NCBI GenBank assembly: GCA_041662125.1
Contig: JBAZTA010000008.1
Span: 2,807-66,806, forward strand
Direction: 5' to 3'
From: Candidatus Omnitrophota bacterium
Lineage (GTDB): Bacteria > Omnitrophota > Gorgyraeia > Gygaellales > Profunditerraquicolaceae
DNA length: 64,000 bases
Under the pieces are notes generated by a model. The model worked only from the letters and a program-made list of their open reading frames with translations, searched no databases and was not told the DNA's origin. The translations under genes were made by a program, and so were the position numbers. Shown piece by piece: positions 15,223 to 37,417 of the stretch; position 1 is the first letter of the stretch; every line of letters begins with the position of its first letter.

Positions 15223-15317
15223 CTCTGTAACCTTAGACTATTATTGCAATATAGCTACGAGTTGACCCTCGGCGGTCCGCCACCACGCCGGGGGGAATAC
15301 TCTCGGACTCTCTCGAA

Positions 15318-18134: not shown

Positions 18135-18158
18135 AAATAGACTCTCCGATCTTGTGGT

Positions 18159-20612: not shown

Positions 20613-20658
20613 GATCTAATCTTTCTGTTCTAAATTAAAGACCACCACAAGTTCCGAA

Positions 20659-22722
20659 TCACTGTTCTTCATGATTGTGATGATCGTAGGTTTTCACCCA
20701 ACATCTGAGAACTTCGGCTACGCTCCACGCTTGAGCGATGCAACCACGGGGGGTATGCGGTTCCTCGGCGTTGAATATCTCGCTGATAAAACCGATTCCA
20801 GCATCCTCCAATTCCGTTGCGAACCCCAGCAGAAAACGCCGAGCCTCCGCCTTGTCTTGCGGATGCAATTTCAGCCATGCGTCAATGTATGGGCCTATGA
20901 GCCACGCCCAGACGGTGCCTTGATGATAGGCAGCGTCTCGAGAGCGAATATCACCGCTGTATGTCGGCTTGTAGTCCGGGTGATCTCGAGACAGCGATCG
21001 GAGTCCAACAGGAGTGAGCAATCGTTCAGAGACCACATTCATGACACTATCCCACCGTGAAAACTCCAGAACAGGATGACACAGGGAAATTGAGAGGACT
21101 TGGTTGGGACGGCACGCCGAATTATCGCCATCACGTCCGTCTACAACATCATACAGGTAACCGCCCTCCGGATACCAGAAGCGGTCGTTGAACGACGCGT
21201 AAGTCCGAGCGGCATGGTCCGCGAGGTAAGCTGCGGCCTGTTTTCCCTGTTCTTCGGTAACCCAGGTTTCCAGCAGTTTCAGCGCGTTGTACCACAGAGC
21301 GTTGATTTCGACCGCTTTGCCCGCTCTCGGTGTTACGACCCAATCGTCAACCTTCGCGTCCATCCACGTGAGTTGATAACCTTCTTGCCCCTGAGAGAGA
21401 AGGCCGTCATTGGGGTCGACTTTGATGTTGAAGTGTGTGCCTCGAATGTGGTGATCCACTATGTCCAGAAGCTTGGGAATCAGTAGCCGAAGTATCGAGC
21501 GGTCTTTCGTGATCTCCAGGTATCGTTCGATAGCGTGAAAAAACCAGAGTGTCGCATCGGCGGTGTGGTACAGGCCTTGTTTCTCACTCTCAGGGAACAT
21601 ATTTGGGATGAGTCCATCCCGGATGTAATGAGCAAAGGTGCGAATAATGGAACCCGCCTCGATGTAGCGCCCCGTAGTCAACGTGAGCCCTTCGAGACTT
21701 ATCATGGTGTCGCGACCCCAGTCTGTGAACCAGTGGTAACCGGCTATAACGCTATGGAGTTCGTACCCGGTGGCTTGCGCGCGAGCAGCGTCTTCCTTGC
21801 GCCCCGCGGGTTTAATCACGAATTGATCTGCGGCTAGGACCAGTTCCGCTGATGTCCCTGCACGAGACGCTGGATCCGCCAAACTAATGAGATGCTCACG
21901 GCGCTGTTTCTCGGCCAGAAAAGCCTCTTCAGGCTTCAGCGCAAGCATGGTCTCCCAACTGTGGCTCGACGCCACCAGCGCTACGTCCTGACTCTTTTGC
22001 AGATCAAGGTGGAAATGGCCCGGACTCCACAGATTGCCCTTGCTATAGTAACCTCGCATTTCTTCCATCCAGAAATCTATTGGTTCAAGCGTTCTGTTGT
22101 CCACAATGAATGCCGGCCCCTGACCATAAAGCGCAATGCGGAGCTGCCGTACAGGACCACCTGAGGTAATCTCGTAACGATTACGGCCAATAATGGTGAT
22201 TGAGTAATCTTCCTCAATGGGAGTATCCGGAATCGCCTCATGCATACGGAAGTGTACTGCCGGCCATAATTCCAGCCTCACCGGACCGTCGCCGGACACC
22301 ATGCGGTATATGATGTGCACGCTATTCTGCAAATGCGGGAGTAATAATCTTTTTTCGATCACGAAATTTCCTATTATGTAGAGCCAGACAGGAAGCCCGG
22401 ATTCCAACCGAAATTCCGACAGGATCGGTGGGCCGTAAAACTGCGGCGGGCTGCCTGCTTTCATTTCCTGGCCGAGTCGCATTCTTGTTCCATCTGGAAG
22501 AACAATCTGCTCCGCTAGATCGTTTAACATTACTACTCGTCCCAAAGGAGCCGGAAGCGCAGAAATCAGGAGCCCGTGATAGCGGCGTGTATGAACACCG
22601 GACACAGTCCCTGAAGCATAGCCACCCAGTCCGTTTGCCACAAGCCACTCGCGTGTAAGCAACACTTCGGTTTCGACTGCGTCCTGCGTACGACAGGGAA
22701 TGCTGTGGGCCAAATCGGTCAT
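20659..22722 (-). CDS. Glycogen debranching enzyme (amylo-alpha-1,6-glucosidase family; TreX-like role)
   Basis: 687 aa with a GDE N-terminal region (…LVANGLGGYASGTVSGVHTRRYHGLL…) and an amylo-alpha-1,6-glucosidase six-hairpin C-terminal domain. The start shares a 4 nt ATGA overlap with the treZ stop. Confidence 0.8.
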   Translation of the reverse strand: MTDLAHSIPCRTQDAVETEVLLTREWLVANGLGGYASGTVSGVHTRRYHGLLISALPAPLGRVVMLNDLAEQIVLPDGTRMRLGQEMKAGSPPQFYGPPILSEFRLESGLPVWLYIIGNFVIEKRLLLPHLQNSVHIIYRMVSGDGPVRLELWPAVHFRMHEAIPDTPIEEDYSITIIGRNRYEITSGGPVRQLRIALYGQGPAFIVDNRTLEPIDFWMEEMRGYYSKGNLWSPGHFHLDLQKSQDVALVASSHSWETMLALKPEEAFLAEKQRREHLISLADPASRAGTSAELVLAADQFVIKPAGRKEDAARAQATGYELHSVIAGYHWFTDWGRDTMISLEGLTLTTGRYIEAGSIIRTFAHYIRDGLIPNMFPESEKQGLYHTADATLWFFHAIERYLEITKDRSILRLLIPKLLDIVDHHIRGTHFNIKVDPNDGLLSQGQEGYQLTWMDAKVDDWVVTPRAGKAVEINALWYNALKLLETWVTEEQGKQAAAYLADHAARTYASFNDRFWYPEGGYLYDVVDGRDGDNSACRPNQVLSISLCHPVLEFSRWDSVMNVVSERLLTPVGLRSLSRDHPDYKPTYSGDIRSRDAAYHQGTVWAWLIGPYIDAWLKLHPQDKAEARRFLLGFATELEDAGIGFISEIFNAEEPHTPRGCIAQAWSVAEVLRCWVKTYDHHNHEEQ

Positions 22723-24629
22723 GACCAGCTCTCTCCAGGTTTCCTTGGTCCCAGGACCACTGCGGCGTGACCTGGGATCCTCCAGTTATCGTGAGTATCT
22801 GCGGGAGGGGTTCCGGAGCCTCCGTACGTGGGATTTTCGCTCGACCAAATGATTTTCCAACGCATGAATTCAGGTGGAGCCAGCAGGGGTTCAGGCGAGG
22901 GATTAAGGTGCAAGTCCAGGCCAAAATTCACCACCACCAATCTATCATCTCCATTTTCTCCGAAGAAGCGCAAGACGAAGGCCTCCGGCCCCAGGACAGC
23001 GCCGTCCAGTCCGCGATATCGCTGGGAGCTAAACACAGGGTCCTCTCGTCGAAGCTTTATCAAGTCACGATGAAGGGCATAAATTCCAGAGTGGCTCTGC
23101 CGTTCCGACATATCGAGTTTTGCTTGTCTGAACAGGGCCGGATCCGAGGGATCAGGGAGCCGATGTTTCATGTCAGGAGCATCAAGACTGAAAAATTGTT
23201 GAAGGAATTCGATCCTCCCCTTGTGTACTTTTCCAGCCAATCTCTTTTCATGGTCCGCAAAATAGTGAAATGGGCTGGATGCCGCAAACTCCTGGCCCTG
23301 GAAGAGCATCGGGGCGCCAGGACCTAACAGCATGAGAGCGGTCATTGCCCTGTAGCGCCCTGGACTGGTAAGGTTGTGGCATCGTAGCCCCCCGGCGGCG
23401 TTGGCGATCTGATCGTGATTCTGAATAAACGTTACGAACGTAGAAGGCTTTAGATCAAGACAAGGGGTCCCACGACGTTTCTTTTGGTGTTTGTACCGCT
23501 GTCCTTGGAACAGGAAACCCCACTTGGCGGCGGAAATAAATTCCTGTGGGGCTCCAAAGTAATCCGTATAATATGCGGGGTTACGCCCAGTAAGAGCCAC
23601 CATGGCGCTGTGGTGGAAATCATCATTCCATAAGGCGTCCATACCGTACCCGCCCTGATCGCACGGCCGCACCAGCTTCACATCTTGCGGTTCATTTTCC
23701 GCCACCAGAATAACGCAACGCTTGCCGGCCGCTCGGCGCGCAGACCGAGTTATGACAGCTAGAATATGTTCCGGTGAATGATCATAGATGTTCTGAGTGG
23801 CGTCCAGTCGCAAACCGTCTAGATGGTATTCGTCGATCCAATAGAAGGCATTGGAACTGAAGAAATCTCTCACGGGCTTGGCGGCGTGTCCGTCGAAATT
23901 GATCGCCTTTCCCCAATCGGTCTCATAACGATCAGTAAAATATTCGTCGGAAAATTTCGACAGATAATTACCGTCCGGGCCCAAGTGATTGTACACAACA
24001 TCAAGGATCACTCCCATTCCTAAGGAATGGGCTTTGTCCACGAATCGGCGAAAATCGTCAGGTCGTCCATAAAGTCGTGTCGGAGCAAAAAGATTCACGC
24101 CGTCATATCCCCAGCCAAAATTTCCCGGAAATTCGGCTACGGGCATCACCTCCACTACCGTTATACCGAGGGAGGCAAGTTCGGGTAGCTCCCGTGCGCC
24201 GCTCTCCCACGTTCCTTCCTGCGTGAAGGTTCCGACGTGCATCTCGTACAATATCTGGCCATCTATCGAAACGCCCGGCCATTCCTGGTCCGTCCAGTTG
24301 AACAACCCCGGATCCACTATCTCTGACGGACCGTGCGGTCCCTTTGGTTGGAAACGCGAAGCTGGATCGGCGTAAACATCTGTCCGCCCGTCCAGGCGAT
24401 AGCTGTACAAAGTGCCGTTTGTCGCTCCAGCCACTAGCCCAGAGAAATACCCGTCAGCGTCCCGAACCAGATCAAAATTCCCGTCCGAATCACTGGGATT
24501 CGATGAGCCCTCTTCGATTACAACCTGTACCTCTTGACAGAGAGGGGCCCATACCCGGAAGTGAGTGGCCTCCCCTCCCCTTGCAACTTCGGCTCCCACG
24601 GGGAGTCGCCTGTTCAAGTCATCTACCAA
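22719..24629 (-). CDS. treZ: Malto-oligosyltrehalose trehalohydrolase (GH13)
   Basis: 636 aa with a TreZ-like N-terminus (RRLPVGAEV…FRVWAP) and a GH13 catalytic core. Confidence 0.8.
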   Translation of the reverse strand: MVDDLNRRLPVGAEVARGGEATHFRVWAPLCQEVQVVIEEGSSNPSDSDGNFDLVRDADGYFSGLVAGATNGTLYSYRLDGRTDVYADPASRFQPKGPHGPSEIVDPGLFNWTDQEWPGVSIDGQILYEMHVGTFTQEGTWESGARELPELASLGITVVEVMPVAEFPGNFGWGYDGVNLFAPTRLYGRPDDFRRFVDKAHSLGMGVILDVVYNHLGPDGNYLSKFSDEYFTDRYETDWGKAINFDGHAAKPVRDFFSSNAFYWIDEYHLDGLRLDATQNIYDHSPEHILAVITRSARRAAGKRCVILVAENEPQDVKLVRPCDQGGYGMDALWNDDFHHSAMVALTGRNPAYYTDYFGAPQEFISAAKWGFLFQGQRYKHQKKRRGTPCLDLKPSTFVTFIQNHDQIANAAGGLRCHNLTSPGRYRAMTALMLLGPGAPMLFQGQEFAASSPFHYFADHEKRLAGKVHKGRIEFLQQFFSLDAPDMKHRLPDPSDPALFRQAKLDMSERQSHSGIYALHRDLIKLRREDPVFSSQRYRGLDGAVLGPEAFVLRFFGENGDDRLVVVNFGLDLHLNPSPEPLLAPPEFMRWKIIWSSENPTYGGSGTPPADTHDNWRIPGHAAVVLGPRKPGESWS

Positions 24630-24658: not shown

Positions 24659-26131
24659 TCACTCTCTGAACAGCTTTCGATAGTGATATCCAAAAATCAT
24701 CAGCGTCACTGCCTCACGCAAAGACCGGCGATAGAACATCAAAGACTTTAGCAGTAGCTTCCAGTAGTAGATTTTGTTGTTCCATTTGTCGAGAATGCCC
24801 ATGTAGAGAATGGAATTGAGGAAAGCGGTCGCTCCCAATAACGTTATCCTGCGCCGTCTCACAGGCTTGTAAGTCCCAAGAAACTCCAAAACCCTAGCGT
24901 AGTATTCCTTCGGGGAATAGAGGTAATTCAGGACTGCGTAATACTGCTGCCGAACGAGCTGCGAATCCATTTTTGGAATGAAATTCATGGCCCCGTCGCA
25001 ATTGTCCCCGGAGCAATCTTCGAGAAGTCGCCCCTCCTCTTTGAGTCGCCGGTAAAGACGGGTTCCCGGCAATGCTTCAAGCAGGCCCACCATTGCTCTA
25101 ACTACTCCACTGTTTTGAATGAACTCTATCTGGCGCTCGAAAATGTCCGGCGGATCGTTGTCAAAACCTATTATGAAGCCACCCATCACTTCCATTCCGT
25201 TTCGTTGTATCGTCTTGACGGCTTCCACCAAGTCCACCGAACGGTTCTGGCTCTTGCCGCATTCAGCGAGACATTGATCCGCCGGAGTCTCCAACCCGAG
25301 AAATACAGAGTCAAAACCTGCTTCGGTCATCAGCTTCATGAGTTCTCGATCTTGAGCCAAATTCACCGAGGCCTCGGTGTACAGCGCAAAAGGAAAATCA
25401 TTAGCCTCCTGCCACGGTTTGAGCGCCTTAAGAAACGACTTGACCTTCGATTGATTCCCGATGAAATTGTCATCCACAACAAACACGCTTCCACGCCAAC
25501 CCATGTCGTACAGAATATCAAACTCCCGTATCATCTGGTCATTGGATTTTACCCTGGGATTCCGGCCATTAAGGTTGACAATGTCACAAAACTCACAGTC
25601 GTACGGGCATCCCCTGGAATACTGAACGGACATGGAGGCGTAGAGTTTCATGTCTATAAGGTCCCATCTGGGCAGAGGGGTCAACGTGATGTCCGGCTTC
25701 TTCTCAGTTGTATAGACTCGGCGTGGGCTTCCCGTGACCAGATCCTTCAGGAAAAGTGGAAGCGTAATTTCAGCCTCATTAAGGACGAGATAATCGAAAT
25801 CGTCAAAGCCTTCCGGACAACTCGTAAACAAAGGCCCCCCACCCACTATGGGCTTACCCAAAGATCGGCATCTGGCGACAATCTGTCGTACTGACTCCTT
25901 TTGAACGATCATGGCCCCTATGAAGACCATGTCGGCCCACTTGATCGCTTCATCCGAGACACCTTCAACGTTAGCGTCGACAAGCCTGAGGTTCCAGTCC
26001 GTGGGAAATATGGAGGCTACCGTCAGCAGCCCGAGAGGCACGTGAGCCGCTTTTTTGCGGATGAACTTCATAATGTGCTTAAAGCTCCAGAAAGTGTCAG
26101 GTATCGACGGGTAAATTAATAGCGCATTCAT
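24659..26131 (-). CDS. B12-binding domain radical SAM protein (class B rSAM)
   Basis: CxxxCxxC radical SAM motif (YSRGCPYDCEFCD) preceded by a B12-binding Rossmann-like region. The true start is the ATG at 26131, which has a GGTGAGGA RBS. The track ORF's first 178 codons are an Asn/Ser-rich out-of-frame read of the neighbouring repeat. Confidence 0.8.
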   Translation of the reverse strand: MNALLIYPSIPDTFWSFKHIMKFIRKKAAHVPLGLLTVASIFPTDWNLRLVDANVEGVSDEAIKWADMVFIGAMIVQKESVRQIVARCRSLGKPIVGGGPLFTSCPEGFDDFDYLVLNEAEITLPLFLKDLVTGSPRRVYTTEKKPDITLTPLPRWDLIDMKLYASMSVQYSRGCPYDCEFCDIVNLNGRNPRVKSNDQMIREFDILYDMGWRGSVFVVDDNFIGNQSKVKSFLKALKPWQEANDFPFALYTEASVNLAQDRELMKLMTEAGFDSVFLGLETPADQCLAECGKSQNRSVDLVEAVKTIQRNGMEVMGGFIIGFDNDPPDIFERQIEFIQNSGVVRAMVGLLEALPGTRLYRRLKEEGRLLEDCSGDNCDGAMNFIPKMDSQLVRQQYYAVLNYLYSPKEYYARVLEFLGTYKPVRRRRITLLGATAFLNSILYMGILDKWNNKIYYWKLLLKSLMFYRRSLREAVTLMIFGYHYRKLFRE

Positions 26132-26165
26132 CAATATGTCCTCACCAATCCGGCCAACCAGTTGT

Positions 26166-28910
26166 TCATTTCTTTTGATGGCCAGGCTCTTCCTTCTGTT
26201 GTTGCTGAGGCGCCTGTGGCTGCGGGCGTTGCTGAGGCATTTGCTGTCGCTGGATTTGGGGGGCTTGCGGCTGGCGCTGCTGAGGCTGCTCTCGTTGTTG
26301 TTGAGGTTGCGGCTGCTGAACCTGCTCGCGCTGCTGTTGCTGTCTATGTGACTGTTCAGCCTGCTGCTGTTGTTGCTGCTGGCGGCGTCCTTGTTCAGCC
26401 TGTTCTTGCTGGCGCTGGTGTTGCTGTTGTTGAACCTGCTCCTGCCTCTGTTGCTGTTGATGTTGTTGAACCTGGTCGCGCTGTTGTCGCTGACGCTGAC
26501 TCTGCTGAGCTTCTTCTTGCTGGCGCCGTTTTTGATCGACCTGCTGTTGCTGTTGTTCACGTTTGTGCGTCTGTTCAGCCTGTTCTTGCTGGCGCTGGTG
26601 TTGCTGTTGTTTCTCCTGACGTTGATTTTGATCAGCTTGTTCTTGCTGGCGTCGTTTTTGATCAACCTGCTGTTGTTCCTGTTTATGTGACTGCTCAGTT
26701 TGCTCTTGTTGACGGCGCTTTTGCTCAGCCTGTCCCTGTTGTGTCTTCAACTGTTCAGACTGCTGTTGCTGCCTTTGAGCCTGCTCAACCTGTTCTTGTT
26801 TGTGGAGTTTTTGATCAGCCTGCTTCTGAGGCTCAAGCTGTTGGCTTTCAGTCTGTTTCCGGAGATCTTCCTGGCGCCCGCGTAACTGTGTAGGTTGTTG
26901 TCCTCTTTCCGGTTGCTGGCCAACGATCTCAGACTGCTTTTTTCGCTGCTCCTCCAAAGCTTTTTCCAGCCCTTCCCGTTTTTGTTTGTCCTGTTCTATG
27001 GATAGCTGGCTCTCCAGATTTCGCCGTTGGCCGAGAAAGTCCAACCTGCCTGCCGGCCCGGCTTCCGGTGTTTTTCCAAGTTCTTTGAGTTGTCCGAGAA
27101 GCTGATCGCGTTTTCGAACATCCCCCTGTTTTGCAGCCTGATTCGTTATAGAGTCGATCTTCTGGTTTGTGAGTTCCGCTCGTTTTCTCTGTTCGACCGA
27201 TTGTCCGAGTTGCGCAACCTGTGTTTCCAGGTCCTTGCGCTTTTGTGGATTCGGGAATTTTGCGAGGTCTTGCTTCAACGAGGCAAGCTTATCTGGAGTC
27301 AAAAGATCCGCAGCGCGGGGCGCCTCAGTTTTTGTCAGTCGGCCTAACTGCTTTTGAAGGTTTTGAACCTTCTTGGGATCCTGTTCTTTTACGAGCTTCT
27401 GCACGACCTGTTTGACTTGGGTCTGTTTTGCGGATATCGGGAGTTTCCCTTGAATCACATCCTGGTTGATTTTGCTGAGTTCGTCCCTCAAAGCCAGACG
27501 CTTTTGAGGGTCCCGCTCATTGGCGACCCTAGAGCGCAGATCGATCAATTCCTTCCCTGCGACTCCCGCTAACTGCGCCTGAACATTCAGGTCGGTCTTC
27601 ATTTTGTCGCGGAAATTTTGGACTACCTTAAGATTCTTGGGAGAATTGAAGGAACTTGAGACAGCCTGAAACAAATTCTTGCCCGAAGGTAACTTATTGG
27701 CGAACTTGTGTTCTTCCTGCTTCAGACTCGTCACATTCTTTTCGAGACGGTTCAGCCGCCTCATAGCCCAATCCTCTTGAATATTAACATTGGCCAGTTG
27801 ACGTTGAGCCTCCCACAACCTGCCCCTATTGCCGGAGAGTTGAGACAGGTATGCCAGATCACGGTACTGTCGTTGCTGAAGCCTCAAATCTGCCAGATAA
27901 TACTGATCGCTATAAATTATGTTGTCCAGGATGAGGCGCCTGGCGTAGATCTCGATAACGGCAGGATCGAACCTCCAGCCGGTGAATGAGTCTACAGGTA
28001 TGATCCAGCGCCCCACTCCGGGCAGAATTACTACAACGCCCAATCCCGGTTGAGGCTGAAGAACGCGGATCTCATCGTACGGGTAGACGTCTTGGGATTC
28101 CCAGTCTTCAAAGTCGTAATCCGAATTAGAAGAGGATTCCGCATACCGTGGGCCGGGAGAAACTCTCCGTTCGGCCACGCCCGGCTGTGAAGGCGTCACA
28201 GGGCAGATATCCAAATTTGCGACTACGGTTCCGGGAATAGTCGTTCCATCCACAAGCCTGTTAAGATCCTCCGAAGACGAAGCCAGAGCCTCCAGTTTCG
28301 GCTTCCCATCCTCCACGTAAACGGTCTGGCAAGAGGAAAGGACTGTATCCGCAGGCCGAGTCAACGTCAAATTCCTGACCCGGACATTACCGGAAATGAC
28401 CGTTATGACCGCTGTCGTTGGGATGTAAACCTCTACGATGAAATCCACTGGCTCATCACTACTAACGGGCTCAATGGAAGCAGCGGGGGTTAAGACCATG
28501 TAAGGAGCTCCTGAGCTACCTCCGCTCGGCTTGGTCACTCGAAGAAGACCCTGGGTCATTTCAATGACATCCGCCGGACCATGTTCAGTTTCTCTTGTAG
28601 CGAGGAACATGGAGGAAGAGCTGCCGAGCGAGTTCAGTAATCCCGTTTTCCACTTGAGGAACAGTTTTCCGTTTTCGCTCGTGCTCACCGTGTTCCACGC
28701 ATCGACCACGCTCCCTACGGCCAGTTTTACCGGCTCCTGGTCTCGGTCCACAACCACGCTTGCGTCTCCCTGAATGCCTTGTACCGCAGCATGCGGTGGT
28801 CCCACTACCTGGGCGTTCGATGAGGCCGGAGCAGCCACTGCGACACAACACATCACGGCCAAGACAAGAGCCAATTTCATGCTTGCGGCCATTGAGATTT
28901 TCGTCTTCAT
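26166..28910 (-). CDS. Large secreted protein: signal peptide, FecR-like beta-rich N-domain, coiled-coil region with repeated xPQKRxxL motifs, and a Gln/Glu/Arg-rich tandem-repeat C-terminus
   Basis: Long ORF; the likely start is MKTKISM… at 28910, preceded by GGGAGAA, with a hydrophobic signal peptide. The C-terminal 300 aa are repeats of about 60 aa (…KQEQQQVDQKRRQQEQ…). The flanking genes lie on the same strand. Confidence 0.65.
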   Translation of the reverse strand: MKTKISMAASMKLALVLAVMCCVAVAAPASSNAQVVGPPHAAVQGIQGDASVVVDRDQEPVKLAVGSVVDAWNTVSTSENGKLFLKWKTGLLNSLGSSSSMFLATRETEHGPADVIEMTQGLLRVTKPSGGSSGAPYMVLTPAASIEPVSSDEPVDFIVEVYIPTTAVITVISGNVRVRNLTLTRPADTVLSSCQTVYVEDGKPKLEALASSSEDLNRLVDGTTIPGTVVANLDICPVTPSQPGVAERRVSPGPRYAESSSNSDYDFEDWESQDVYPYDEIRVLQPQPGLGVVVILPGVGRWIIPVDSFTGWRFDPAVIEIYARRLILDNIIYSDQYYLADLRLQQRQYRDLAYLSQLSGNRGRLWEAQRQLANVNIQEDWAMRRLNRLEKNVTSLKQEEHKFANKLPSGKNLFQAVSSSFNSPKNLKVVQNFRDKMKTDLNVQAQLAGVAGKELIDLRSRVANERDPQKRLALRDELSKINQDVIQGKLPISAKQTQVKQVVQKLVKEQDPKKVQNLQKQLGRLTKTEAPRAADLLTPDKLASLKQDLAKFPNPQKRKDLETQVAQLGQSVEQRKRAELTNQKIDSITNQAAKQGDVRKRDQLLGQLKELGKTPEAGPAGRLDFLGQRRNLESQLSIEQDKQKREGLEKALEEQRKKQSEIVGQQPERGQQPTQLRGRQEDLRKQTESQQLEPQKQADQKLHKQEQVEQAQRQQQQSEQLKTQQGQAEQKRRQQEQTEQSHKQEQQQVDQKRRQQEQADQNQRQEKQQQHQRQQEQAEQTHKREQQQQQVDQKRRQQEEAQQSQRQRQQRDQVQQHQQQQRQEQVQQQQHQRQQEQAEQGRRQQQQQQQAEQSHRQQQQREQVQQPQPQQQREQPQQRQPQAPQIQRQQMPQQRPQPQAPQQQQKEEPGHQKK
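26170..26900. repeat. Imperfect tandem repeat (about 180–186 bp period) of CAG/CTG/CAA-rich DNA encoding the Q-rich tail; open in all six frames
   Basis: Near-identical strings recur, for example tgttcagcctgttcttgctggcgctggtgttgctgttgtt at about 26390 and about 26573, and cttgctggcg(c/t)cgtttttgatc(g/a)acctgctgttg at about 26515 and about 26641. Shadow ORFs occur on both strands. Confidence 0.8.
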
Positions 28911-29030
28911 GGATAGTTCTCCCATTTTATTTCTTTTGAGTTCAAAGGCCGAGCTAGATCACTTAGCCCATGATTGGAACAGCGAGGCATGCCCTATAAT
29001 TGTCTTAGCTACAAACTCAATCATGTATTG

Positions 29031-29168
29031 TTATCTGCCGAGCAGACCTAATGCGCCTACAATGATCAAATAAATCCCGATGATCCATGTCACGAAACGA
29101 GGCGCTATGAGTATCAAAATACCGGCTATCAAAGCCACTAACGGCTGAAGATGCAGATTAATGTTCAT
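29031..29168 (-). CDS. Small membrane protein, DUF3096-like (45 aa; missed by ORF track)
   Basis: Manual translation gives MNINLHLQPLVALIAGILILIAPRFVTWIIGIYLIIVGALGLLGR*. The pattern matches the DUF3096 family. Confidence 0.55.
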   Translation of the reverse strand: MNINLHLQPLVALIAGILILIAPRFVTWIIGIYLIIVGALGLLGR

Positions 29169-29238
29169 GTCTTCCTCCATGGGACAATTGCTTCGCAGAA
29201 GCTGCGTTTATTCTGATTCATGTTTAAGAACTTCATTT

Positions 29239-29583
29239 CTAACGGCGTCCAAGAGACCTGGACCAGTTCTTCCACCCTTGCCAGCCTGATTTCCGGCGAT
29301 AGAGCATAATTTCGACTAATCCTAGCAGGAACAGGAGTACCACCGCCCCGAGCGTCGCACTGATCAATGGTCCGATGAGTCCGTGAAAGGACAACCTCAT
29401 GAAGCTGAACAGAAAGCCCCCGATGAAGGCCCCTACGACTCCTACAATCAGATTGATAACCAGCCCGGCTCCTCTTCCTCTTATAATTTGTTCGGCCAGA
29501 AAACCGGCGACAAGTCCTATTATCAAGAACCCTATCAATGGCTCGATCGGCATATTGATTCTCATGTTTTCCTCCTGCGACAA
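29239..29583 (-). CDS. GlsB/YeaQ/YmgE-family (transglycosylase-associated) stress membrane protein
   Basis: Glycine-zipper TM helices (LIIGLVAGFLAE…VGVVGAFIGGFLF). The start is uncertain; internal Mets are possible. Confidence 0.75.
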   Translation of the reverse strand: MSQEENMRINMPIEPLIGFLIIGLVAGFLAEQIIRGRGAGLVINLIVGVVGAFIGGFLFSFMRLSFHGLIGPLISATLGAVVLLFLLGLVEIMLYRRKSGWQGWKNWSRSLGRR

Positions 29584-29659
29584 TTAGTCGTTAAACAATG
29601 TACGTCCAGGAATTCGTCTGGCGTACTCCGCCATTCGCTACGAGACTCCATTGTTCAAA

Positions 29660-29845
29660 TCATTTCCTGACTCTTCCGTACAGTGATTGTATCTTGCCAG
29701 CCAGTTGATTGATTTTTCCGGCAAGAACGCCGGTATACCTATGACTCCACCATCCCCATTTTTCGCGGACCTTACCTTTCAACTGATTCACGTTTCCGAC
29801 GAATAGATGCCGATTCACAGGATTTCTCCTTGTCGCCAACTGCAA
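29660..29845 (-). CDS. CsbD-family general stress protein (divergent; start uncertain)
   Basis: …VNQLKGKVREKWG…GKINQLAGKIQSLYG matches the CsbD KxxGKxKExxGK pattern. Confidence 0.55.
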   Translation of the reverse strand: MQLATRRNPVNRHLFVGNVNQLKGKVREKWGWWSHRYTGVLAGKINQLAGKIQSLYGRVRK

Positions 29846-29933
29846 TTACGCTCTTTTGGGCAGCCCAATCACATTACGCCGGCTCCCGGCCGATCAGACC
29901 CCGGAAAGTCCTGAGAAAAAGTTTCGTATCAGG

Positions 29934-30440
29934 CTAGTTTTTCCCCCCAAAGAACTCGCGGATTTTCCCATACCACTCAGAGTCAGTGAAGTTCGGCCAT
30001 TTCTTGCTTTCAAAGTTGGGCGCTTTTTCTAGCTGAACCTTGTCTATGTCTACGATGATCGTGTCCGCTTGAGCGCCTGTCTTCACGGATTTCCACGGAA
30101 TGGGTATCAATCGGTCACCGGTTCCGAGCAAACCTCCGGGAGCCAAAACTATATAGTCTAGACATCCATCCTTGCTCAGCACAATATCTTCAATCTTTCC
30201 GAGGTCCTCTCCTTTTTGACTTATCACTTTTTTCCCAAGTATTTTACTTACTCTGTCCGCATGCTCCAGGGCGGTTTTTTCGCTTGTTTGGCTCCGTTCT
30301 GCGCTCGTAGGGGGTTTTACATCGGTTTGAGCCTGGACGCTGGGGGTCGTGCCCACCTCTGGCTCAGCGGCAAGCGCTTGACTTACAAATAAGGTACAGA
30401 CTGCCAGAAAGAGCGTCATAAAGTTTCTCGATTTTTTCAT
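29934..30440 (-). CDS. PRC-barrel domain protein with signal peptide
   Basis: Signal peptide plus a PRC-barrel core (…VISQKGEDLGKIEDIVLSKDGCLDYIVLAPGGLLGTGDRLIPIPW…). Confidence 0.7.
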   Translation of the reverse strand: MKKSRNFMTLFLAVCTLFVSQALAAEPEVGTTPSVQAQTDVKPPTSAERSQTSEKTALEHADRVSKILGKKVISQKGEDLGKIEDIVLSKDGCLDYIVLAPGGLLGTGDRLIPIPWKSVKTGAQADTIIVDIDKVQLEKAPNFESKKWPNFTDSEWYGKIREFFGGKN

Positions 30441-30570
30441 CGAGTTTCTCCTTCCTCCTATTTCGGGATAATTTGACAGGCGTCAGAGCGATGAGGACCC
30501 AGTCCCATTATTTACAGCCAAACACTGAAATTACCGCTTTGACATGCCATAATCGGTGAAACCGAACAGT

Positions 30571-30732
30571 CTACCGCTCCAGCACGATTAGAATACCAGC
30601 AGCGATAGCGAGCAGAGCCAATAAAACACTGACGACCGGATTACCGACAGATAGCGCCTGTAGCAGGCCCGTCACGATCAGCCAGATGCCAAGTAAAAGG
30701 AATCCCAATCTTTTTGTTACGTTCAGATTCAT
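30571..30732 (-). CDS. Small hydrophobic membrane protein (53 aa; missed by ORF track)
   Basis: Manual translation gives MNLNVTKRLGFLLLGIWLIVTGLLQALSVGNPVVSVLLALLAIAAGILIVLER*, two predicted TM helices. Confidence 0.4.
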   Translation of the reverse strand: MNLNVTKRLGFLLLGIWLIVTGLLQALSVGNPVVSVLLALLAIAAGILIVLER

Positions 30733-30792
30733 GTTGTTCACCTCCCTTTTTGAGAACCGAGATTCGTCCTACCGCAGGCCATTCCAGGACCG

Positions 30793-30939
30793 CTAAAGGC
30801 CCCTTCGGCCTTGAAGGAGATTAATCACTATCACCACGAGCGCTATGACCAGCAGAATGTGAATTATGGCGCCCACGGGGTAGGCGACTAAACCTATTAG
30901 CCAAAGAATCAACAAGATTACCACTATAGTCCAAAGCAT
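30793..30939 (-). CDS. lmo0937-family small membrane protein (48 aa; missed by ORF track)
   Basis: Manual translation gives MLWTIVVILLILWLIGLVAYPVGAIIHILLVIALVVIVINLLQGRRGL*, matching the lmo0937 family pattern (MLWTI…HLLLVIA…GRR). Confidence 0.6.
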   Translation of the reverse strand: MLWTIVVILLILWLIGLVAYPVGAIIHILLVIALVVIVINLLQGRRGL

Positions 30940-31054
30940 TTTTTCTCCTCCTTACGTCGCTGTCTTGCGACGATCTAAATCCTTTTGTGAGAAAGGACCA
31001 ACTCCGGCCTGTTTATGAGGCTGCTCTCCCTTTCTCGACTCCGGGTATCCCGTA

Positions 31055-31453
31055 TCAAGCTTTTCTATGATGCAAGGCTTTTCTTGCCTCTTCCGCCAAT
31101 TTCACGTAGTCGACACGTATGAGGTCTAGCTCCTTTTCATCCAATTCCTCCAAATTCAAGAGCCCATTGTGAGCATCTTCCATCACACGAATCAACTCAT
31201 CCAACTTGATGTGTATGGCTTCGGAATCCCTATTTTGGGTATTCTGGATGAGGAATACCATTAGAAAGGTCACAATCGTCGTGCCAGTATTGATGACCAA
31301 TTGCCAGGTGTCACTAAAGCTGAAGATCGGTCCTGTAATGACCCACGCGACAATTACCGAAAATGCAAGGACGAAAGCCGACGGATGACCTGTGGCGCGT
31401 GCCGTCCATTTGGCGAAGCGAGTGAACCGAGATGTGGATTTCGTAGGTTTCAT
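31055..31453 (-). CDS. Low-affinity iron permease-family small membrane protein
   Basis: 132 aa; …SFSDTWQLVINTGTTIVTFLMVFLIQNTQNRDSEAIHIKLDELI… matches the bacterial Iron_permease family pattern. Confidence 0.6.
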   Translation of the reverse strand: MKPTKSTSRFTRFAKWTARATGHPSAFVLAFSVIVAWVITGPIFSFSDTWQLVINTGTTIVTFLMVFLIQNTQNRDSEAIHIKLDELIRVMEDAHNGLLNLEELDEKELDLIRVDYVKLAEEARKALHHRKA

Positions 31454-31492
31454 TTCAACTTATCCTCGTTCCGCGTAAGGCTGGCCGGGTGG

Positions 31493-31690
31493 CTACCAAT
31501 TGCGCAGATGCTCGTCCAGTTCCTTCTCAGCTTCCTCACGTTTGAGCCCGTATTTCTCTTGTAACTTACCAAGTAAATGGTCTCGCTTCCCAGCAACGAC
31601 TTCCAGATCGTTGTCCGTGAGTTTGCCCCACTTCTCTCTAAACTTGCCTTGCAGTTGCTTCCAGTTTCCTTCAATCTGATCCCAGTTCAT
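31493..31690 (-). CDS. CsbD-family general stress protein
   Basis: 65 aa, MNWDQIEGNWKQLQGKFREKWGKLTDNDLEVVAGKRDHLLGKLQEKYG…, with an AAGGAGGGAC RBS. Confidence 0.85.
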   Translation of the reverse strand: MNWDQIEGNWKQLQGKFREKWGKLTDNDLEVVAGKRDHLLGKLQEKYGLKREEAEKELDEHLRNW

Positions 31691-31748
31691 GATTCGTCCC
31701 TCCTTATTGGGGTGCGGCGTTAATTCGCCAGGTTTTCCGGTTTCATGG

Positions 31749-31901
31749 TTAGAGACGGCCCGTCAATAGGAGCACGATCACGATGATCAGCACCACACCA
31801 AGGAGACCGCTGGGGCCACGCCCCCAGCTACGACTATATCCCCAGGTCGGTAGCGCTCCTACGAGCAAAAGGATCAGGATAATTACCAGAATAGTTCCCA
31901 T
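31749..31901 (-). CDS. DUF3309-family small membrane protein (50 aa; missed by ORF track)
   Basis: Manual translation gives MGTILVIILILLLVGALPTWGYSRSWGRGPSGLLGVVLIIVIVLLLTGRL* with a GGAGGGAGAAAAACA RBS. It has the family's PTW..S..WG..PSG core. Confidence 0.6.
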   Translation of the reverse strand: MGTILVIILILLLVGALPTWGYSRSWGRGPSGLLGVVLIIVIVLLLTGRL

Positions 31902-32308
31902 TGTTTTTCTCCCTCCAGACTTTTAAGAATAGCGTCAGTGACATAACCATCACTGGAGACGCTTTTAACCCTTATAATACATGTATGCACCTTGCGTGCC
32001 AATTAAGGCAATGGATAAGGTTTTCCATAAAAGCAACGCTATCAGATAGTTAGGCACAGCGATGCCCGTGGATTGAAACACCAAGGGGCGACAAGAAAGC
32101 GGTTAGTGTCCTACAAACGGTCCACTCAATTGCTGTCACTGTGTTATCAAGGGGTTATATATTTATCAGTGTCTGATGATAGGACACTAACGTGCGGATT
32201 TGGACTAGTTTTCGCTCTCAACATGGGGGTCACTTTCTGTTATTCGTTCCGCCAGTAAGGCAGGTCAAAATCAATTTCACAAAATCGATGTAATATTGAG
32301 CAATTGAA

Positions 32309-32857
32309 TCATGCTCTAGACAGCGAGTTAGGCGTTACCCCACCGTGCATGTTGACCTCATCCGCTTCAGTGTTCTCCAGGATGCTTCGGGCTTTCTCCA
32401 CCTCTTCTGTGCTCCCGTGACAGATTACAAGGAACTTGTCGGCTTTTATTTGGGTTTCATACTTGATGACACTGTCTTTTGGTACGCCTATACTGAACAA
32501 TCCGGCGCCGACTGCGCTGACGCCGCCAACAACTACAGCTCCTTCGAGCGCCCCCACGATCCAGCTCACCAGTGGTCCCGCTACGGCAATGGGGCCTATA
32601 CCGGGAACGAAAAAGAAGGCGGCGCCGAACAGCAAGCCCCAGAGCCCGCCCCAAAAAGCGCCGATCTTTCCCCAGGCCTTCATACGGTCCCCAGTATTAT
32701 AGTATCCGACCACATGCTCATCAGAGTGATAGTCCTTGCCCACTACAGACAGCTTCTTCATGTCAAGCCCTGCCTTCTGGAGTTCTCTGACAGCAGACTC
32801 CGCCGCGGTATGAGTGTTGTACACTCCAGCGACCGCCTTGTTTCCTGTAACGTTCAT
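32309..32857 (-). CDS. General stress protein 17M (YflT)-like, glycine-zipper membrane protein
   Basis: N-terminal VAGVYNTHTAAESAVRELQKAG…LSVVGKD, a central Gly-rich TM region (GAFWGGLWGLLFGAAFF), and C-terminal …KFLVICHGSTEEVEKARSILE. This is the YflT-like arrangement. Confidence 0.5.
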   Translation of the reverse strand: MNVTGNKAVAGVYNTHTAAESAVRELQKAGLDMKKLSVVGKDYHSDEHVVGYYNTGDRMKAWGKIGAFWGGLWGLLFGAAFFFVPGIGPIAVAGPLVSWIVGALEGAVVVGGVSAVGAGLFSIGVPKDSVIKYETQIKADKFLVICHGSTEEVEKARSILENTEADEVNMHGGVTPNSLSRA

Positions 32858-32946: not shown

Positions 32947-33591
32947 CTAGCGCCGGTGGTTTTTCAGGTCTTTTCCTTTTCCGCCGTCAATTAGGATCGG
33001 TCGCGCTTCTTCAGTTTTTTTCGGGCTTACCGCATCACTTTGAGCCGTTTTTGCCCCTCCAGAGTATTGGCGAATAACAATGTTCAGGGGATCGGATTCA
33101 GAGAATCTGCTCTTGGCGTAAAACTGAGTTGAACTTTCTCTTGCAAAAGTCCTTAGCCGTTCCTTCAATTGAGTCGTCAATCTAGCTCGAGCAGACTCTA
33201 TTAAACGCATGTATTCGGCGAACAGATTCGCCGAATAAAGCTGTTTGTAGTCAGGGCTCTGAATAAGCTCATGGTACACCTTGACAAACCTTTCATGTTC
33301 GGGGGCTCCGGCGAGATGACTAAATACTCGATTAATTAGTTCGCCATTCAATTGCATGGAATCTGTCGATGATTGTCGCGACAAATGCGCTAACATGGAT
33401 GTTCGTTTCTCAGCCTCATAGCACCGTGCTATGTCACGCTCCATCGATTCCAGGTCCTGTATCTGTTCGATCAATTGATAAGCGCTGTCATCGAATGGTA
33501 TCGACAAGTCCTGCGATCGAACGGTACCCGGCGTCATGATGATCGTCGCAACCAACAAGAGCGAGCCCAAAAGTTTAGTTTTAGTCTTCAT
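32947..33591 (-). CDS. Hypothetical secreted protein (signal peptide)
   Basis: 214 aa; N-terminal MKTKTKLLGSLLLVATIIMTPGTVRS signal peptide; no recognised domain. Confidence 0.45.
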   Translation of the reverse strand: MKTKTKLLGSLLLVATIIMTPGTVRSQDLSIPFDDSAYQLIEQIQDLESMERDIARCYEAEKRTSMLAHLSRQSSTDSMQLNGELINRVFSHLAGAPEHERFVKVYHELIQSPDYKQLYSANLFAEYMRLIESARARLTTQLKERLRTFARESSTQFYAKSRFSESDPLNIVIRQYSGGAKTAQSDAVSPKKTEEARPILIDGGKGKDLKNHRR

Positions 33592-37300: not shown

Positions 37301-37417
37301 GGGCTTATCCGCGTTCGGTTTCACGATGACTATCCTCCTCTTCTTGGCGCCACCACCGAGTCCCGGTCCAGAGGGGCCACGGGAAATCGATGGACAGGCG
37401 TCGTCGGACAATCTCAT
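34385..37417 (-). CDS. Plasma-membrane-type (P3A) H+-ATPase with an unusual C-terminal DUF2254-like membrane extension
   Basis: PMA1-like signatures ([41 protein letters not shown]) and 10 TM helices. About 160 extra C-terminal residues (…LMLSTIAGSMMTVVGITFSMTLMTLMLASSQYTSRILRNFMRD…) resemble the N-terminus of DUF2254 proteins. The start is uncertain (37417 or the internal MQELQ at 37246). Confidence 0.8.
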   Translation of the reverse strand: MRLSDDACPSISRGPSGPGLGGGAKKRRIVIVKPNADKPEAKPGAKPEAKDDLKSLPMQELQKKLASTPDGLSQAEAQKRLTQYGPNEIEEKKINPFLKFLTYFWGPIPWMIEVAVILSGVVRHWPDFFIILLLLVANAVVGFWEEHQAENAIAALKAKLAINARVKRDGKWITAPASELTPGDVIRVRLGDIVPADARLLEGDPVEVDQSALTGESLPATRKPGEAVFSGSIIRQGEIGAMVYATGANTYFGKTAQLVQEAHTVSHFQRAVLKIGNFLILLAVALVAVIITVAIFRGDPILTTLQFALVLTVAAIPVAMPTVLSVTMAVGARLLAKKEAIVSRLVAIEELAGVDVLCADKTGTLTQNKLTLGDPFSVNNVPADQVILNAALASRADNKDTIDLAVLGGLQNDQALKGYQVVHFQPFDPVHKRTEATVKGADGKEFKVTKGAPQVILELSSNAGQVKPAVDKAVNEFAVRGFRSLGVARAGGDGQWQFLGVLPLFDPPREDAKSTIATAAQMGVKIKMVTGDQLAIAQETAKKLGMGANILDASGLGDVKREETSAVAESIENADGFAQVFPEHKFHIVDVLQKRGHIVGMTGDGVNDAPALKKADCGVAVSGATDAARAAAAIVLLTDGLSVIIDAIKESRKIFQRMNSYAMYRIAETLRVLLFMTLAILIFNFYPLTAIMIVMLALLNDGAILSIAYDNVHYKDEPEAWNMRMVLGIATVLGVIGPVAAFGLFYLGASVFHLNRPDLQTMMYLMLSVAGHLTIFLTRTRGPFWSIRPAKILLVAVLGTQTLATLIAVYGLFMTPLGWGYALFVWGYALVWALVSDRVKLLAYRVLDPSKAKTPPDLTSDVVAARARLMLSTIAGSMMTVVGITFSMTLMTLMLASSQYTSRILRNFMRDTVTQVVLGMFAGIFTYCLIVLRSIRSGDEGDFVPSLAVFVGILLAISGIVALILFIHHIASLIQASSIISSVAEETMVTNENALQCTRLTAMRPLPRGR

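Follow-up and report, generated by a model that had tools for sequence, protein, structure and literature searches.

The minus-strand open reading frame at 26166..28925 of the window (the whole 64,000-nucleotide stretch of DNA analysed here) is a real gene that encodes a protein and evolves under purifying selection. Sequence comparison places it in a conserved, uncharacterised family that is nearly confined to Desulfomonilaceae-like MAGs (Desulfomonile-like sulfate reducers). Its product combines a folded head with a tail that is nearly half glutamine, an unusual arrangement for bacteria, and the original prediction was correct in its overall architecture: a putative signal peptide, a FecR-like beta domain, a helical PQKR segment and a Gln/Glu/Arg-rich tail. 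Bacteria seldom have long Gln-rich domains, which are characteristic of eukaryotic regulators. A selected Gln-rich domain carried family-wide on an exported protein would give a simple system for studying the physical role that such sequences play outside the cytoplasm, be it as a spacer, a hydrogel or a binder of polyanions. The protein is also a candidate marker or envelope component for the Desulfomonilaceae, which are relevant to dehalogenation and sulfate reduction. At present it is annotated as a hypothetical protein, and its role can only be inferred.

Gene structure and coding evidence

The longest open reading frame on the minus strand has, as originally claimed, 919 aa; it starts with ATG, and its stop codon occupies 26166-26168. 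Translation probably begins instead at the ATG at 28910, for a functional CDS of 26166-28910 and a 914-aa product, because a GGGAG Shine-Dalgarno core and this ATG are invariant across eight relatives in an upstream-region alignment, whereas the upstream ATG of the 919-aa frame is present in only the three closest sequences of that alignment. The NCBI call for the identical protein is also 914 aa: our 914-aa product is 100% identical to GenBank MFA6217976.1 (P0199), labelled 'hypothetical protein'. The features of the gene are as follows.

28918-28923, minus strand: likely ribosome-binding site GGGAGA; Shine-Dalgarno core invariant in the upstream alignment
28908-28910, minus strand: start codon ATG, likely the true start; invariant in the upstream alignment
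28812..28910, minus strand: putative Sec-type signal peptide, MKTKISMAASMK / LALVLAVMCCVAVAA / PASSNA, then Q; residues 6-38 (919-aa numbering), read from sequence
28281..28793, minus strand: divergent FecR-fold beta domain, residues 45-215; Foldseek, and Pfam in relatives
28089..28202, minus strand: Pro/Ser-rich linker of variable length, residues 242-279; pLDDT <50 over 248-267, indel-rich in the alignment
26916..28088, minus strand: conserved body, residues 280-670; AF2 pLDDT 85-94
26919..27536, minus strand: five 43-44-aa helix-turn repeats, residues ~464-669; motif scan and autocorrelation
26823..26915, minus strand: disordered hinge, residues 671-701; pLDDT <50 over 671-704
26328..26822, minus strand: Gln-rich polar tail, residues 702-866; degenerate ~10-aa EQxEQxxRQQ units, region of in-frame indels among relatives
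26169..26327, minus strand: Pro/Gln-rich disordered end, residues 867-919; pLDDT <50, acidic-then-basic ...KEEPGHQKK

Three lines of evidence identify the minus-strand frame as the coding one, as had been predicted. Head dN/dS is ~0.2 (0.20-0.21 against L004 and L005, two 96%-identical relatives, gap-free over 2100 nt); 42 full-length homologues, 37-93% identical, preserve the frame; and AF2 folds the head confidently, with pLDDT 85-97 across residues 41-240 and 280-660 (pLDDT 76 and pTM 0.68 for the model overall). In this assembly the tail, of provisional length, is in frame and closes with the family's conserved C-terminus.

Read by eye, the N-terminus consists of a basic n-region (MKTK...), a 15-residue hydrophobic core and then SNA followed by Q, between which the cleavage site would fall. 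The same n/h/c layout recurs in homologues, and both structure models place a helix at residues 14-31. A signal-peptide-like N-terminus is thus present where one had been claimed, suggesting export to the periplasm or envelope. Export to an oxidising compartment is consistent with a pair of cysteines, Cys199 and Cys241, that is invariant in the family.

Architecture of the folded head

The beta-rich, FecR-like N-terminal domain of the original prediction was borne out for residues 45-215. Foldseek matched this region to the PupR CCSSD (6ovk_R) and to BDI_1681 (4m0n/4m0h) with E 1e-6 to 1e-5 and probability 1.0, over 139-150 columns at an rmsd of 2.5-3.5 A. Pfam FecR (PF04773) was matched by 9/38 aligned family members (best E 2.8e-6), and distant relatives found by profile score above its gathering cutoff. 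The window protein itself gave no PF04773 match in the Pfam scan even at E<=1; its place among FecR domains follows from the fold match together with the Pfam matches of its relatives. A short helix (residues 218-228) comes after the domain.

Secreted 'FecR domain-containing' proteins from Deltaproteobacteria-type genomes (e.g., P0101, P0112, P0122 and P0125) likewise have a signal-peptide-proximal FecR-like domain, aligning to profile positions 15-250 at E 1e-34 to 1e-8, as well as a low-complexity basic tail, and all are uncharacterised. Their middle parts, however, are Cys/Pro/Gly-rich repeats rather than a helical body with DPxKR repeats, and their tails are Pro/Arg/Lys-rich, whereas that of the window protein is ~47% Gln.

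The conserved body opens with a small beta unit (E270-309), which carries the motifs YPYDEIRV and GW.FDP. A long helical hairpin (H321-364 / H367-409) and other helices make up the rest, those in residues 440-690 forming an array of short helices. It matched no family in Pfam or NCBIfam and had no significant PDB match by fold or profile. The motif [DN][PVK][QKR]K[RV]..L...L recurs at residues 472, 516, 559, 602 and 646 (spacings 44, 43, 43 and 44), and protein autocorrelation lags of 43 and 87 match these helix-turn repeats. Where 'three or more' xPQKRxxLxxxL repeats had been proposed, we count five, each 43-44 aa long and marked by a D-P-x-K-R motif, which together define a helical-repeat module with no counterpart in Pfam or the PDB. 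To call this segment a coiled coil was loose: the hydrophobicity spectra of residues 440-690 and of the tail show neither heptad nor hendecad periodicity (nothing stands out at 3.5 to 3.67). Their peaks, at 3.95, 3.35 and 3.1, follow as harmonics from the 43.5-aa repeat, and only residues 321-460 show a periodicity peak, at 3.4.

Composition and repeat structure of the tail

Residues 681-919 contain 47% Q, 11% R, 10% E and 6% K, with 65 CAG and 47 CAA codons, and end in ...QQQQKEEPGHQKK (given in a second listing as ...PQQRPQPQAPQQQQKEEPGHQKK, the ending originally reported). The tail is indeed rich in Q, E, R and K, but these make up 74% of it rather than 'almost entirely' all, and it spans ~230-250 aa instead of ~300. 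With a GRAVY of -2.75 and a pI of 10.1 it is extremely hydrophilic and net basic, residues 671-919 holding 41 K+R and 32 D+E of 249 (~30% charged). AF2 draws two helices (H702-770 and H778-866) at pLDDT 50-79, i.e., low to medium confidence; AlphaFold commonly draws helices on low-complexity Gln-rich sequence, and the hydrophobicity spectrum of the tail shows no amphipathic periodicity.

These properties set the tail apart from known classes of biased sequence. Charged single alpha-helices typically have >70% E/K/R with an i/i+4 opposite-charge pattern, whereas E+K+R reach ~27% here and Gln dominates. Prion-like and polyQ sequences are Q/N-rich with few charges, and the 47% Q of this tail is accompanied by the many charged residues counted above. 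Eukaryotic polyQ, Q-rich coiled-coil and prion-like domains (e.g., MED15; PMC7997880) resemble it in high Gln content, mixed CAG/CAA codons, predicted helicity and length variation between relatives. The tail differs in its charge, which is atypical for prion-like domains; it also has no heptad periodicity and would belong to a bacterial envelope rather than to a nucleus or cytoplasm.

The tandem period of 180-186 bp (60 aa) that had been proposed was not recovered by TRF, which scored only one tail row above 31 points, a 30-bp repeat of 1.9 copies at 26607-26664. We defined a ~180-bp array by head-to-tail copies in TRF or by unit identity of at least ~70%, and no minisatellite-like array of this kind was found. 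A repeat search returned 60-63-nt units at 60-73% identity with irregular spacing, one 73-nt pair at 82% identity lying 126 nt apart, and a single perfect 15-mer that occurs again 180 nt away, which is the longest exact direct repeat. At lag 180, DNA identity was 0.50, whereas lags that keep the frame averaged 0.45. Autocorrelation of the tail protein peaked at lags of 10, 30, 40 and 60 aa (z only ~3-3.6); the basal unit is therefore ~10 aa (30 nt), degenerate, with a weak 60-aa echo.

Family distribution and genomic context

The family comprises ~60 clusters, with 62 cluster representatives at E<1e-30 in a profile search, and nearly all come from Desulfomonilaceae MAGs. Tail length ranges from 118 to 332 aa across 38 relatives, with the Q/R/E/K(L) composition and basic end kept, and tail dN is ~5x head dN. 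Most relatives have ...EE..K(K/R)-like ends, and the DNA encoding the C-terminal end is conserved in L004 and L005. From these alignments, the head is conserved in sequence and the tail only in composition and its charged C-terminal end. The tails of L004 and L005 differ from that of the window protein by in-frame indels of 30, 6 and 36 nt at ~96% nucleotide identity, indicating that tail length changes by in-frame gain or loss of roughly 10-aa units.

Upstream of the gene lie DUF3096, Transgly_assoc, CsbD, PRC-barrel and YflT genes (Pfam), and downstream a B12-radical-SAM gene followed by genes for TreZ, a debranching enzyme, GH57, TreY and TreT, an order repeated in 10-12 related loci. In this genome and its close clade only, the gene thus sits within a trehalose-synthesis and general-stress gene island. 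This context is limited to relatives of at least 64% identity; the neighbours in L001 and L002/L014 are unrelated, so the family has no conserved functional partner. A distant subfamily adjoins a gene for cyclopropane-fatty-acid synthase, an envelope stress-adaptation enzyme.

Possible roles of the protein

The reading we prefer, to which we give a little less than an even chance, is that of an exported protein of the envelope: its head would dock to a partner, and its hydrophilic, basic tail would act through bulk properties. FecR and PupR domains bind partner proteins in the periplasm and, by analogy, the FecR-like head and helical body may dock on an envelope partner, for which gene context offers no identifiable candidate. 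What would matter in the tail is its bulk physical character, not a particular fold, and it could serve either as a long hydrated spacer or brush or as a multivalent binder of anionic envelope polymers (peptidoglycan, LPS or exopolysaccharide). Since the gene sits in a trehalose and general-stress island in this genome and close clade, the likeliest setting would be osmotic or water stress, with the protein helping to protect or remodel the envelope. TolA and TonB offer a partial parallel, being periplasmic proteins with a long, charged, biased spacer (helical Lys/Ala/Glu in TolA, Pro-rich in TonB) whose sequence evolves freely. They have an N-terminal transmembrane anchor and a globular partner-binding C-terminus, whereas the window protein, which had no TolA or TonB Pfam match, reverses this order, with the globular head first and the tail end free.

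The same gene context could point to a periplasmic or extracellular protectant resembling hydrophilins, in which the Gln tail retains water or vitrifies with trehalose and the head merely serves as an anchor. The very low GRAVY of the tail, its degenerate ~10-aa units (reminiscent of LEA 11-mers) and the position of the gene between csbD/Transgly_assoc/DUF3096/PRC/YflT and treZ/treY/treT in 10-12 loci all fit, and Group 3 LEA proteins and hydrophilins share with it high hydrophilicity, degenerate units of ~10-11 residues and an association with trehalose and stress genes. We nonetheless consider such a protectant unlikely. Hydrophilins are defined by >6% Gly, and Gly is not among the eight commonest residues of this tail; no LEA or hydrophilin family was matched at E<=1 in Pfam or NCBIfam; the gene context is not conserved in distant family members; and a purely colligative role leaves the large, strongly conserved folded head unexplained. 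Such a head and a predicted export signal are further differences from the LEA group.

A more elaborate reading, which we regard as decidedly unlikely, makes the protein a lineage-specific architectural component of the Desulfomonilaceae envelope. Anchored by its head at a defined site (possibly the collar-like wall invagination of Desulfomonile), the ~25-nm Gln tail would self-associate through side-chain hydrogen bonds into a hydrated periplasmic gel or condensate, polyQ-like, length-tuned by 10-aa units and deployed with trehalose under water stress. If true, a bacterium would here be putting a polyQ-like domain to use outside the cytoplasm.

Quite improbable is a lineage-specific structural protein of the cell wall, such as a component of the Desulfomonile collar or a peptidoglycan-tethered strut. 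Desulfomonile is distinguished by a collar-like envelope invagination, and the named relatives of the protein are Desulfomonilaceae or Desulfomonile MAGs. The protein is predicted to be exported, its 165-residue tail would, if helical, measure ~25 nm (1.5 A per residue), and most family members end in a basic residue. The taxonomic argument is pure correlation, however; a collar in the MAG organisms is an assumption, and some genomes carry two paralogues (L009 and L018). Nor is the terminal residue the invariant Lys that Lpp-type cross-linking to peptidoglycan would need: the window protein ends in KK, and relatives also end in R, H, Q, G or N.

The variable tail had also been flagged as a candidate for copy-number variation. 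That suggestion holds to the extent that tail length varies between relatives, but the gene is not a classical slippage or contingency locus because its DNA lacks perfect tandem repeats (no perfect tract by TRF or repeat search, with CAG and CAA interspersed). A phase-variable surface protein, whose repeat DNA slips often and switches tail length or frame, is accordingly very improbable. The tail indels among close relatives and the frameshifts inside the tail of the called ORFs of L004 and L005 would favour it; against it, TRF found nothing above the 1.9-copy 30-mer, the longest perfect repeat is 15 nt, and interspersed CAG/CAA stabilises such tracts. Because the Gln frame of L004 and L005 resumes after the shifts, reaching the same ...KEEPGHQKK stop, and other genes in loci of the same MAG series are fragmented too, these frameshifts are better explained by indel errors in the assemblies than by biological switching.

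The fold of the head raises the question of a FecR-type anti-sigma, cell-surface-signalling regulator, which would respond to an outer-membrane transducer by controlling an ECF sigma factor. The best PDB matches of the N-terminal domain are the anti-sigma regulators PupR and BDI_1681, and the Pfam FecR matches among relatives point the same way; the two kinds of domain share one beta fold and an extracytoplasmic location, predicted in the case of the window protein. In FecR and PupR, a cytoplasmic anti-sigma domain and a transmembrane helix precede the FecR domain. Here that domain begins ~7 residues past the predicted cleavage site, leaving no room for either. It is preceded only by a 33-residue signal-peptide-like segment with no Pfam domain, and this architecture largely refutes the reading, which we rate as highly improbable. 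In addition, no anti-sigma N-domain was matched in Pfam, and the structural match covers ~140-150 of ~212 residues in the solved domains. The Pfam-scanned neighbours (13.3-44.3 kb of the window, which hold sugar-metabolism, stress, radical-SAM and P-type ATPase genes only) include neither an ECF sigma factor nor a TonB-dependent transducer, and the related loci L001-L003 have none either. The domain instead forms the N-terminal module of a putatively soluble, exported protein with no membrane anchor, which extends the FecR fold to a non-signalling architecture.

A B12-binding/radical-SAM/DUF4070 gene with its own GGTGAGG Shine-Dalgarno starts 32 nt past the stop codon. Its product might methylate glutamines or other residues of the protein before export, an idea that draws on this adjacency, seen in ~10 loci, and on a weak NCBIfam match (54.6 bits, where the cutoff is 360) to the family of MCR glutamine C-methyltransferases. 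We find it scarcely credible. The enzyme's NCBIfam matches all fall far below cutoff and are spread over many unrelated class-B families, the two genes are separated in L003 by ~600 nt and an intervening ORF, the neighbour is missing from distant family members, and the radical SAM gene might just as well be part of the sugar operon downstream.

That the frame as a whole is spurious, arising from CAG/CTG-rich, stop-poor DNA or an assembly artefact, has a negligible chance and is ruled out, despite four frames open over the tail and several shadow ORFs, by a low-complexity part of only ~25% of the ORF, 690 remaining residues conserved at dN/dS ~0.2, a confidently folding head with a recognised domain, and indels between intact relatives in multiples of three. 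The tail DNA had been described as open in all six frames, but over 26166-26900 only four are, the other two containing 21 and 15 stops. The shadow ORFs do overlap the tail as claimed:

26162..26893, plus strand: shadow ORF overlapping the tail
26370..26690, plus strand: shadow ORF overlapping the tail
to 26665: TTG-started extension of the downstream gene's frame, overlapping the tail

Both the multi-frame openness and the shadow ORFs simply result from coding DNA that is rich in CAG and CAA.

Evidence for a Selected Gene

The original prediction placed an ATG-initiated ORF of 919 aa at 26166..28925 on the minus strand. This ORF is present in the sequence and is a real gene. A word-indexed search recovered 42 full-length homologues (37–93% identity). 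When 1.84 billion cluster representatives were searched with a profile of residues 1–400, 492 proteins matched at E < 1e-3, 62 of them at E < 1e-30. Compared with the two closest loci, L004 and L005 (~96% DNA identity to the window), the first 2100 nt aligned without a gap at a dN/dS of 0.20–0.21. An AlphaFold2 model (38-sequence alignment) reached a mean pLDDT of 76 and a pTM of 0.68, with residues 41–240 and 280–660 at 85–97. A spurious ORF at 26166..28925 thus has next to no probability.

Translation probably begins five codons inside the ORF, at the ATG at 28908–28910 (MKTK...), yielding a 914-aa product: this codon and a GGGAG/AGGAG Shine-Dalgarno sequence 7 nt 5' of it were unchanged in all eight related upstream regions (8/8), while the outermost ATG was restricted to the three closest sequences. 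MFA6217976.1 in GenBank (P0199; window 26166–28910) matches the 914-aa product with 100% identity and is recorded as 'MAG: hypothetical protein WDL87_10045 [Candidatus Omnitrophota bacterium]'; the gene has thus already been deposited as an unnamed hypothetical protein.

The ~100 nt 5' of the gene (28926–29030, minus strand) were conserved in relatives of 64–97% protein identity, including the elements CTAAGTGATCTA...TCGG..TT.AAACTCAAAAGGAATAA and the palindrome GGCATGCC. This conservation suggests a candidate promoter or 5' leader belonging to the gene itself. A consensus scan of the region found no sigma-70-like match, and promoter and terminator scans flanking the gene were at background level.

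Domain Anatomy

The encoded protein is conserved and of a predicted exported type. Its FecR-fold domain is followed by a novel body of helical repeats and by a Gln-rich tail, an anatomy that we consider close to certain.

Segments of the protein (residues of the 919-aa ORF; minus strand)
6–38: probable Sec-type signal peptide (basic n-region, 15-residue hydrophobic core, SNA|Q; read by eye from the sequence)
45–215: FecR-fold beta domain (Foldseek and Pfam of relatives)
242–279: Pro/Ser linker, variable and disordered
280–670: body, with a small beta unit, a long helical hairpin (321–364 / 367–409) and more helices; confident AlphaFold2 model
472, 516, 559, 602, 646: five-copy helix-turn motif inside the body
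671–701: disordered stretch (AlphaFold2)
702–866: two long polar helices (AlphaFold2, pLDDT 50–79)
867–919: disordered Pro/Gln-rich end (AlphaFold2)

Pfam and NCBIfam scans of the whole protein gave zero matches at E ≤ 1, Pfam FecR included. Foldseek matched residues 45–215 to FecR-type periplasmic domains alone (PupR CCSSD, 6ovk_R; BDI_1681, 4m0n/4m0h), at E values of 1e-6 to 1e-5, probability 1.0, 139–150 columns and rmsd 2.5–3.5 Å. Nine of the 38 family members carry Pfam FecR (best E 2.8e-6), and PF04773 also exceeds its gathering threshold in remoter proteins that the profile brought in. The 'FecR-like' description of the N-domain is therefore correct at the domain level, where the protein belongs to the FecR-domain superfamily. 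Cys199 and Cys241 were unchanged in 38/38 sequences, a pattern compatible with a periplasmic disulfide.

The body (residues 280–670) is without counterpart in Pfam, NCBIfam or the PDB; when the full model was compared with the PDB by Foldseek, residues 280–919 yielded generic helical proteins at most. Searching the PDB with a profile of the 38 aligned sequences returned Nop58, huntingtin, SFPQ and others at E ≥ 0.027, which are chance-level low-complexity matches. The 'three or more' PQKR-type repeats noted previously do exist and number five, following [DN][PVK][QKR]K[RV]..L...L at spacings of 44, 43, 43 and 44. Since the hydrophobicity spectrum of residues 440–690 contained harmonics of 43.5 without a heptad or hendecad signal, this segment is built of short helix-turn units in series and is not a continuous coiled coil. 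An apolipoprotein/LEA-like 11/3 amphipathic periodicity was likewise absent from the 43–44-aa repeats.

Composition and Evolution of the Tail

The tail is basic, Gln-rich, constrained in composition and variable in length. Residues 681–919 consist of 47% Gln (65 CAG and 47 CAA codons), 11% Arg, 10% Glu and 6% Lys; residues 671–919 have a pI of 10.1 and a GRAVY of -2.75, and the protein ends in ...PQQRPQPQAPQQQQKEEPGHQKK. A tandem period of 180–186 bp (60 aa) had been predicted here, but TRF shows none, its sole tail row being 30 bp in 1.9 copies. A repeat search of the tail DNA found irregularly spaced 60–63-nt units (60–73% identity), one 73-nt pair (82% identity, spaced by 126 nt) and a single perfect 15-mer that recurs after 180 nt. 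DNA identity at lag 180 was 0.50, where in-frame lags averaged 0.45, and protein autocorrelation peaked at lags 10, 30, 40 and 60 (z ~3–3.6). From its sequence, the most fitting description of the tail is a series of cryptic, degenerate units of ~10 aa patterned on EQxEQxxRQQ; more distant relatives have a 5-aa repeat, QQQLx, instead. Nor is this DNA open in all six frames, as had been stated: over 26166–26900 four of six are open, and the remaining two contain 21 and 15 stops. Shadow ORFs arise over the tail because its coding DNA is rich in CAG and CAA.

Shadow ORFs overlapping the tail
26162..26893, plus strand: shadow ORF
26370..26690, plus strand: shadow ORF
Up to 26665, minus strand: shadow extension in the downstream gene's frame, TTG start

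Among 38 relatives, heads spanned 580–760 aa and tails 118–332 aa. Nearly all tails were rich in Q/R/E/K(/L), a few being Pro/Gly/Arg-rich, and as a rule they ended in an acidic-then-basic motif. In-frame indels of 30, 6 and 36 nt separate the window's tail from those of L004 and L005, and close relatives with an intact gene encode 907 and 940 aa. In an ungapped tail block, dN against L004 and L005 was 0.09–0.11, ~five-fold above the head, with a dN/dS of 0.33–0.47.

L004 and L005 (both at 8001–10760) carry one or two frameshifts within the tail, so that their called ORFs end early in another frame. Because other genes are also split in this MAG series (L009, L016, L018 and L019), a pattern consistent with long-read indel errors, the frameshifts are most likely assembly indel errors. 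True alternative C-termini are ruled out, as the Gln frame resumes beyond the shifts and reaches the conserved ...QQQQKEEPGHQKK stop. Of the proposal that the repeat DNA is a site of length variation, the between-strain variation is real, while high-frequency slippage is unlikely because perfect tandem repeats are absent; we accordingly regard a contingency locus as very improbable.

Taxonomic Range and Gene Neighbourhood

Most named relatives come from Desulfomonilaceae, Desulfomonile or 'delta proteobacterium' MAGs, the exceptions being labeled Thermodesulfobacteriota, Pseudomonadota or Candidatus Omnitrophota, and the loci nearest in DNA (96–97%) belong to Desulfomonilaceae or delta-proteobacterial MAGs. 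The 'Omnitrophota' label of MFA6217976.1 is at odds with these relatives, suggesting a binning or classification error of the source contig. Two paralogues occur together in MAG MFD09730.bin.3.152: over the N-terminal 400 aa of the window protein, L009 is 77% and L018 42% identical to it. At least two subfamilies therefore coexist.

Neighbours of the Gln-rich-tail gene (all minus strand)
13292–14647: TreT, downstream
Between TreT and TreY: DUF5752 gene, downstream
15318–18134: TreY, downstream, above the NCBIfam equivalog cutoff
Between TreY and the debranching enzyme: GH57/DUF3536 gene, downstream
Between GH57/DUF3536 and TreZ: glycogen debranching enzyme, downstream
22719–24629: TreZ, downstream, above the NCBIfam equivalog cutoff
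24659–26131: B12-binding radical SAM/DUF4070 gene, starting 32 nt past the stop of the Gln-rich-tail gene
29031–29180: DUF3096 gene, upstream
29239–29583: Transgly_assoc (YmgE/GlsB type) gene, upstream
29660–29845: CsbD-like gene, upstream
29934–30440: PRC-barrel gene, upstream
32309–32857: YflT-like gene, upstream
32947–33591: 214-aa ORF, upstream, without Pfam or NCBIfam match, conserved and placed alike in eight related loci

The stretches 13292–24629 and 29031–32857 look like a compatible-solute and general-stress island around the gene, its upstream side (DUF3096 to YflT-like) made up of small genes of stress type. This order is retained in 10–12 loci with protein identity ≥64% and lost in more distant family members. 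ORF clustering across 21 loci found clade-specific synteny alone, with no universally conserved partner; an apparently shared 'PAS histidine kinase' neighbour was due to a generic domain. In a distant subfamily, a divergently transcribed cyclopropane-fatty-acid synthase (Pfam CMAS) lies 5' of the gene and a convergent PAS histidine kinase follows it.

CMAS-type cyclopropane-fatty-acid synthases (divergent; Pfam CMAS)
L016, 6443–7588
L018, 6371–7519
L019, 6511–7623

Farther upstream in the window (34385–37417, minus strand) is a 1010-aa P-type ATPase with a C-terminal DUF2254, a predicted membrane protein domain, at residues 826–990, an apparent gene fusion.

Putative Function and Comparison with Known Systems

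FecR and PupR domains bind periplasmic proteins, and by analogy the head may dock onto an envelope partner. The tail would work via its bulk properties: it could form a hydrated brush or spacer, or bind anionic polymers of the wall multivalently. In the close clade the gene lies in a trehalose and general-stress island, which suggests adaptation of the envelope to osmotic or water stress as a possible setting. We hold this composite reading tentatively, at a little under an even chance, and the proposed function is weakly supported.

A pure hydrophilin-like protectant is unlikely; the protein does not qualify as an LEA/hydrophilin, nor as a canonical coiled coil, SAH, prion-like domain or Lpp-type protein. 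It is improbable that the tail self-associates into a periplasmic Gln gel or a collar scaffold, and slightly more so that the protein is a lineage-specific wall or collar component, a collar being described as a distinct feature of the genus Desulfomonile (PMC7773648). A FecR-type anti-sigma regulator, despite the shared domain, is contradicted by both architecture and neighbourhood (a cytoplasmic domain, an anchor and a sigma/transducer linkage were sought, and none was found) and is highly doubtful. Scarcely credible is a substrate of the adjacent radical SAM protein, which has a GGTGAGG Shine-Dalgarno sequence ahead of its start, falls in no specific NCBIfam family above cutoff, and whose listed 668-aa ORF is inflated by the shadow extension into the CAG-rich tail.

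TolA and TonB, envelope proteins with low-complexity spacers, offer a possible functional likeness, though their module order is reversed in the window protein. Our literature search found nothing relevant on bacterial proteins combining a FecR domain with Gln-rich sequence. The module combination is unusual, yet not unprecedented, and its main interest lies in a polyQ-like tail that is under selection and probably extracytoplasmic. In architecture the protein comes closest to a set of secreted, uncharacterised FecR-domain proteins, which differ in their Cys-rich middles and basic Pro/Arg/Lys tails. P0101, P0112, P0113, P0122, P0125 and other profile-search relatives share the FecR-like N-domain alone, followed by Cys/Pro/Gly-rich repeats and then basic Pro/Arg/Lys-rich low-complexity tails. 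These sequences suggest that secreted proteins built as a 'FecR head plus low-complexity tail' form a broader class in these lineages.
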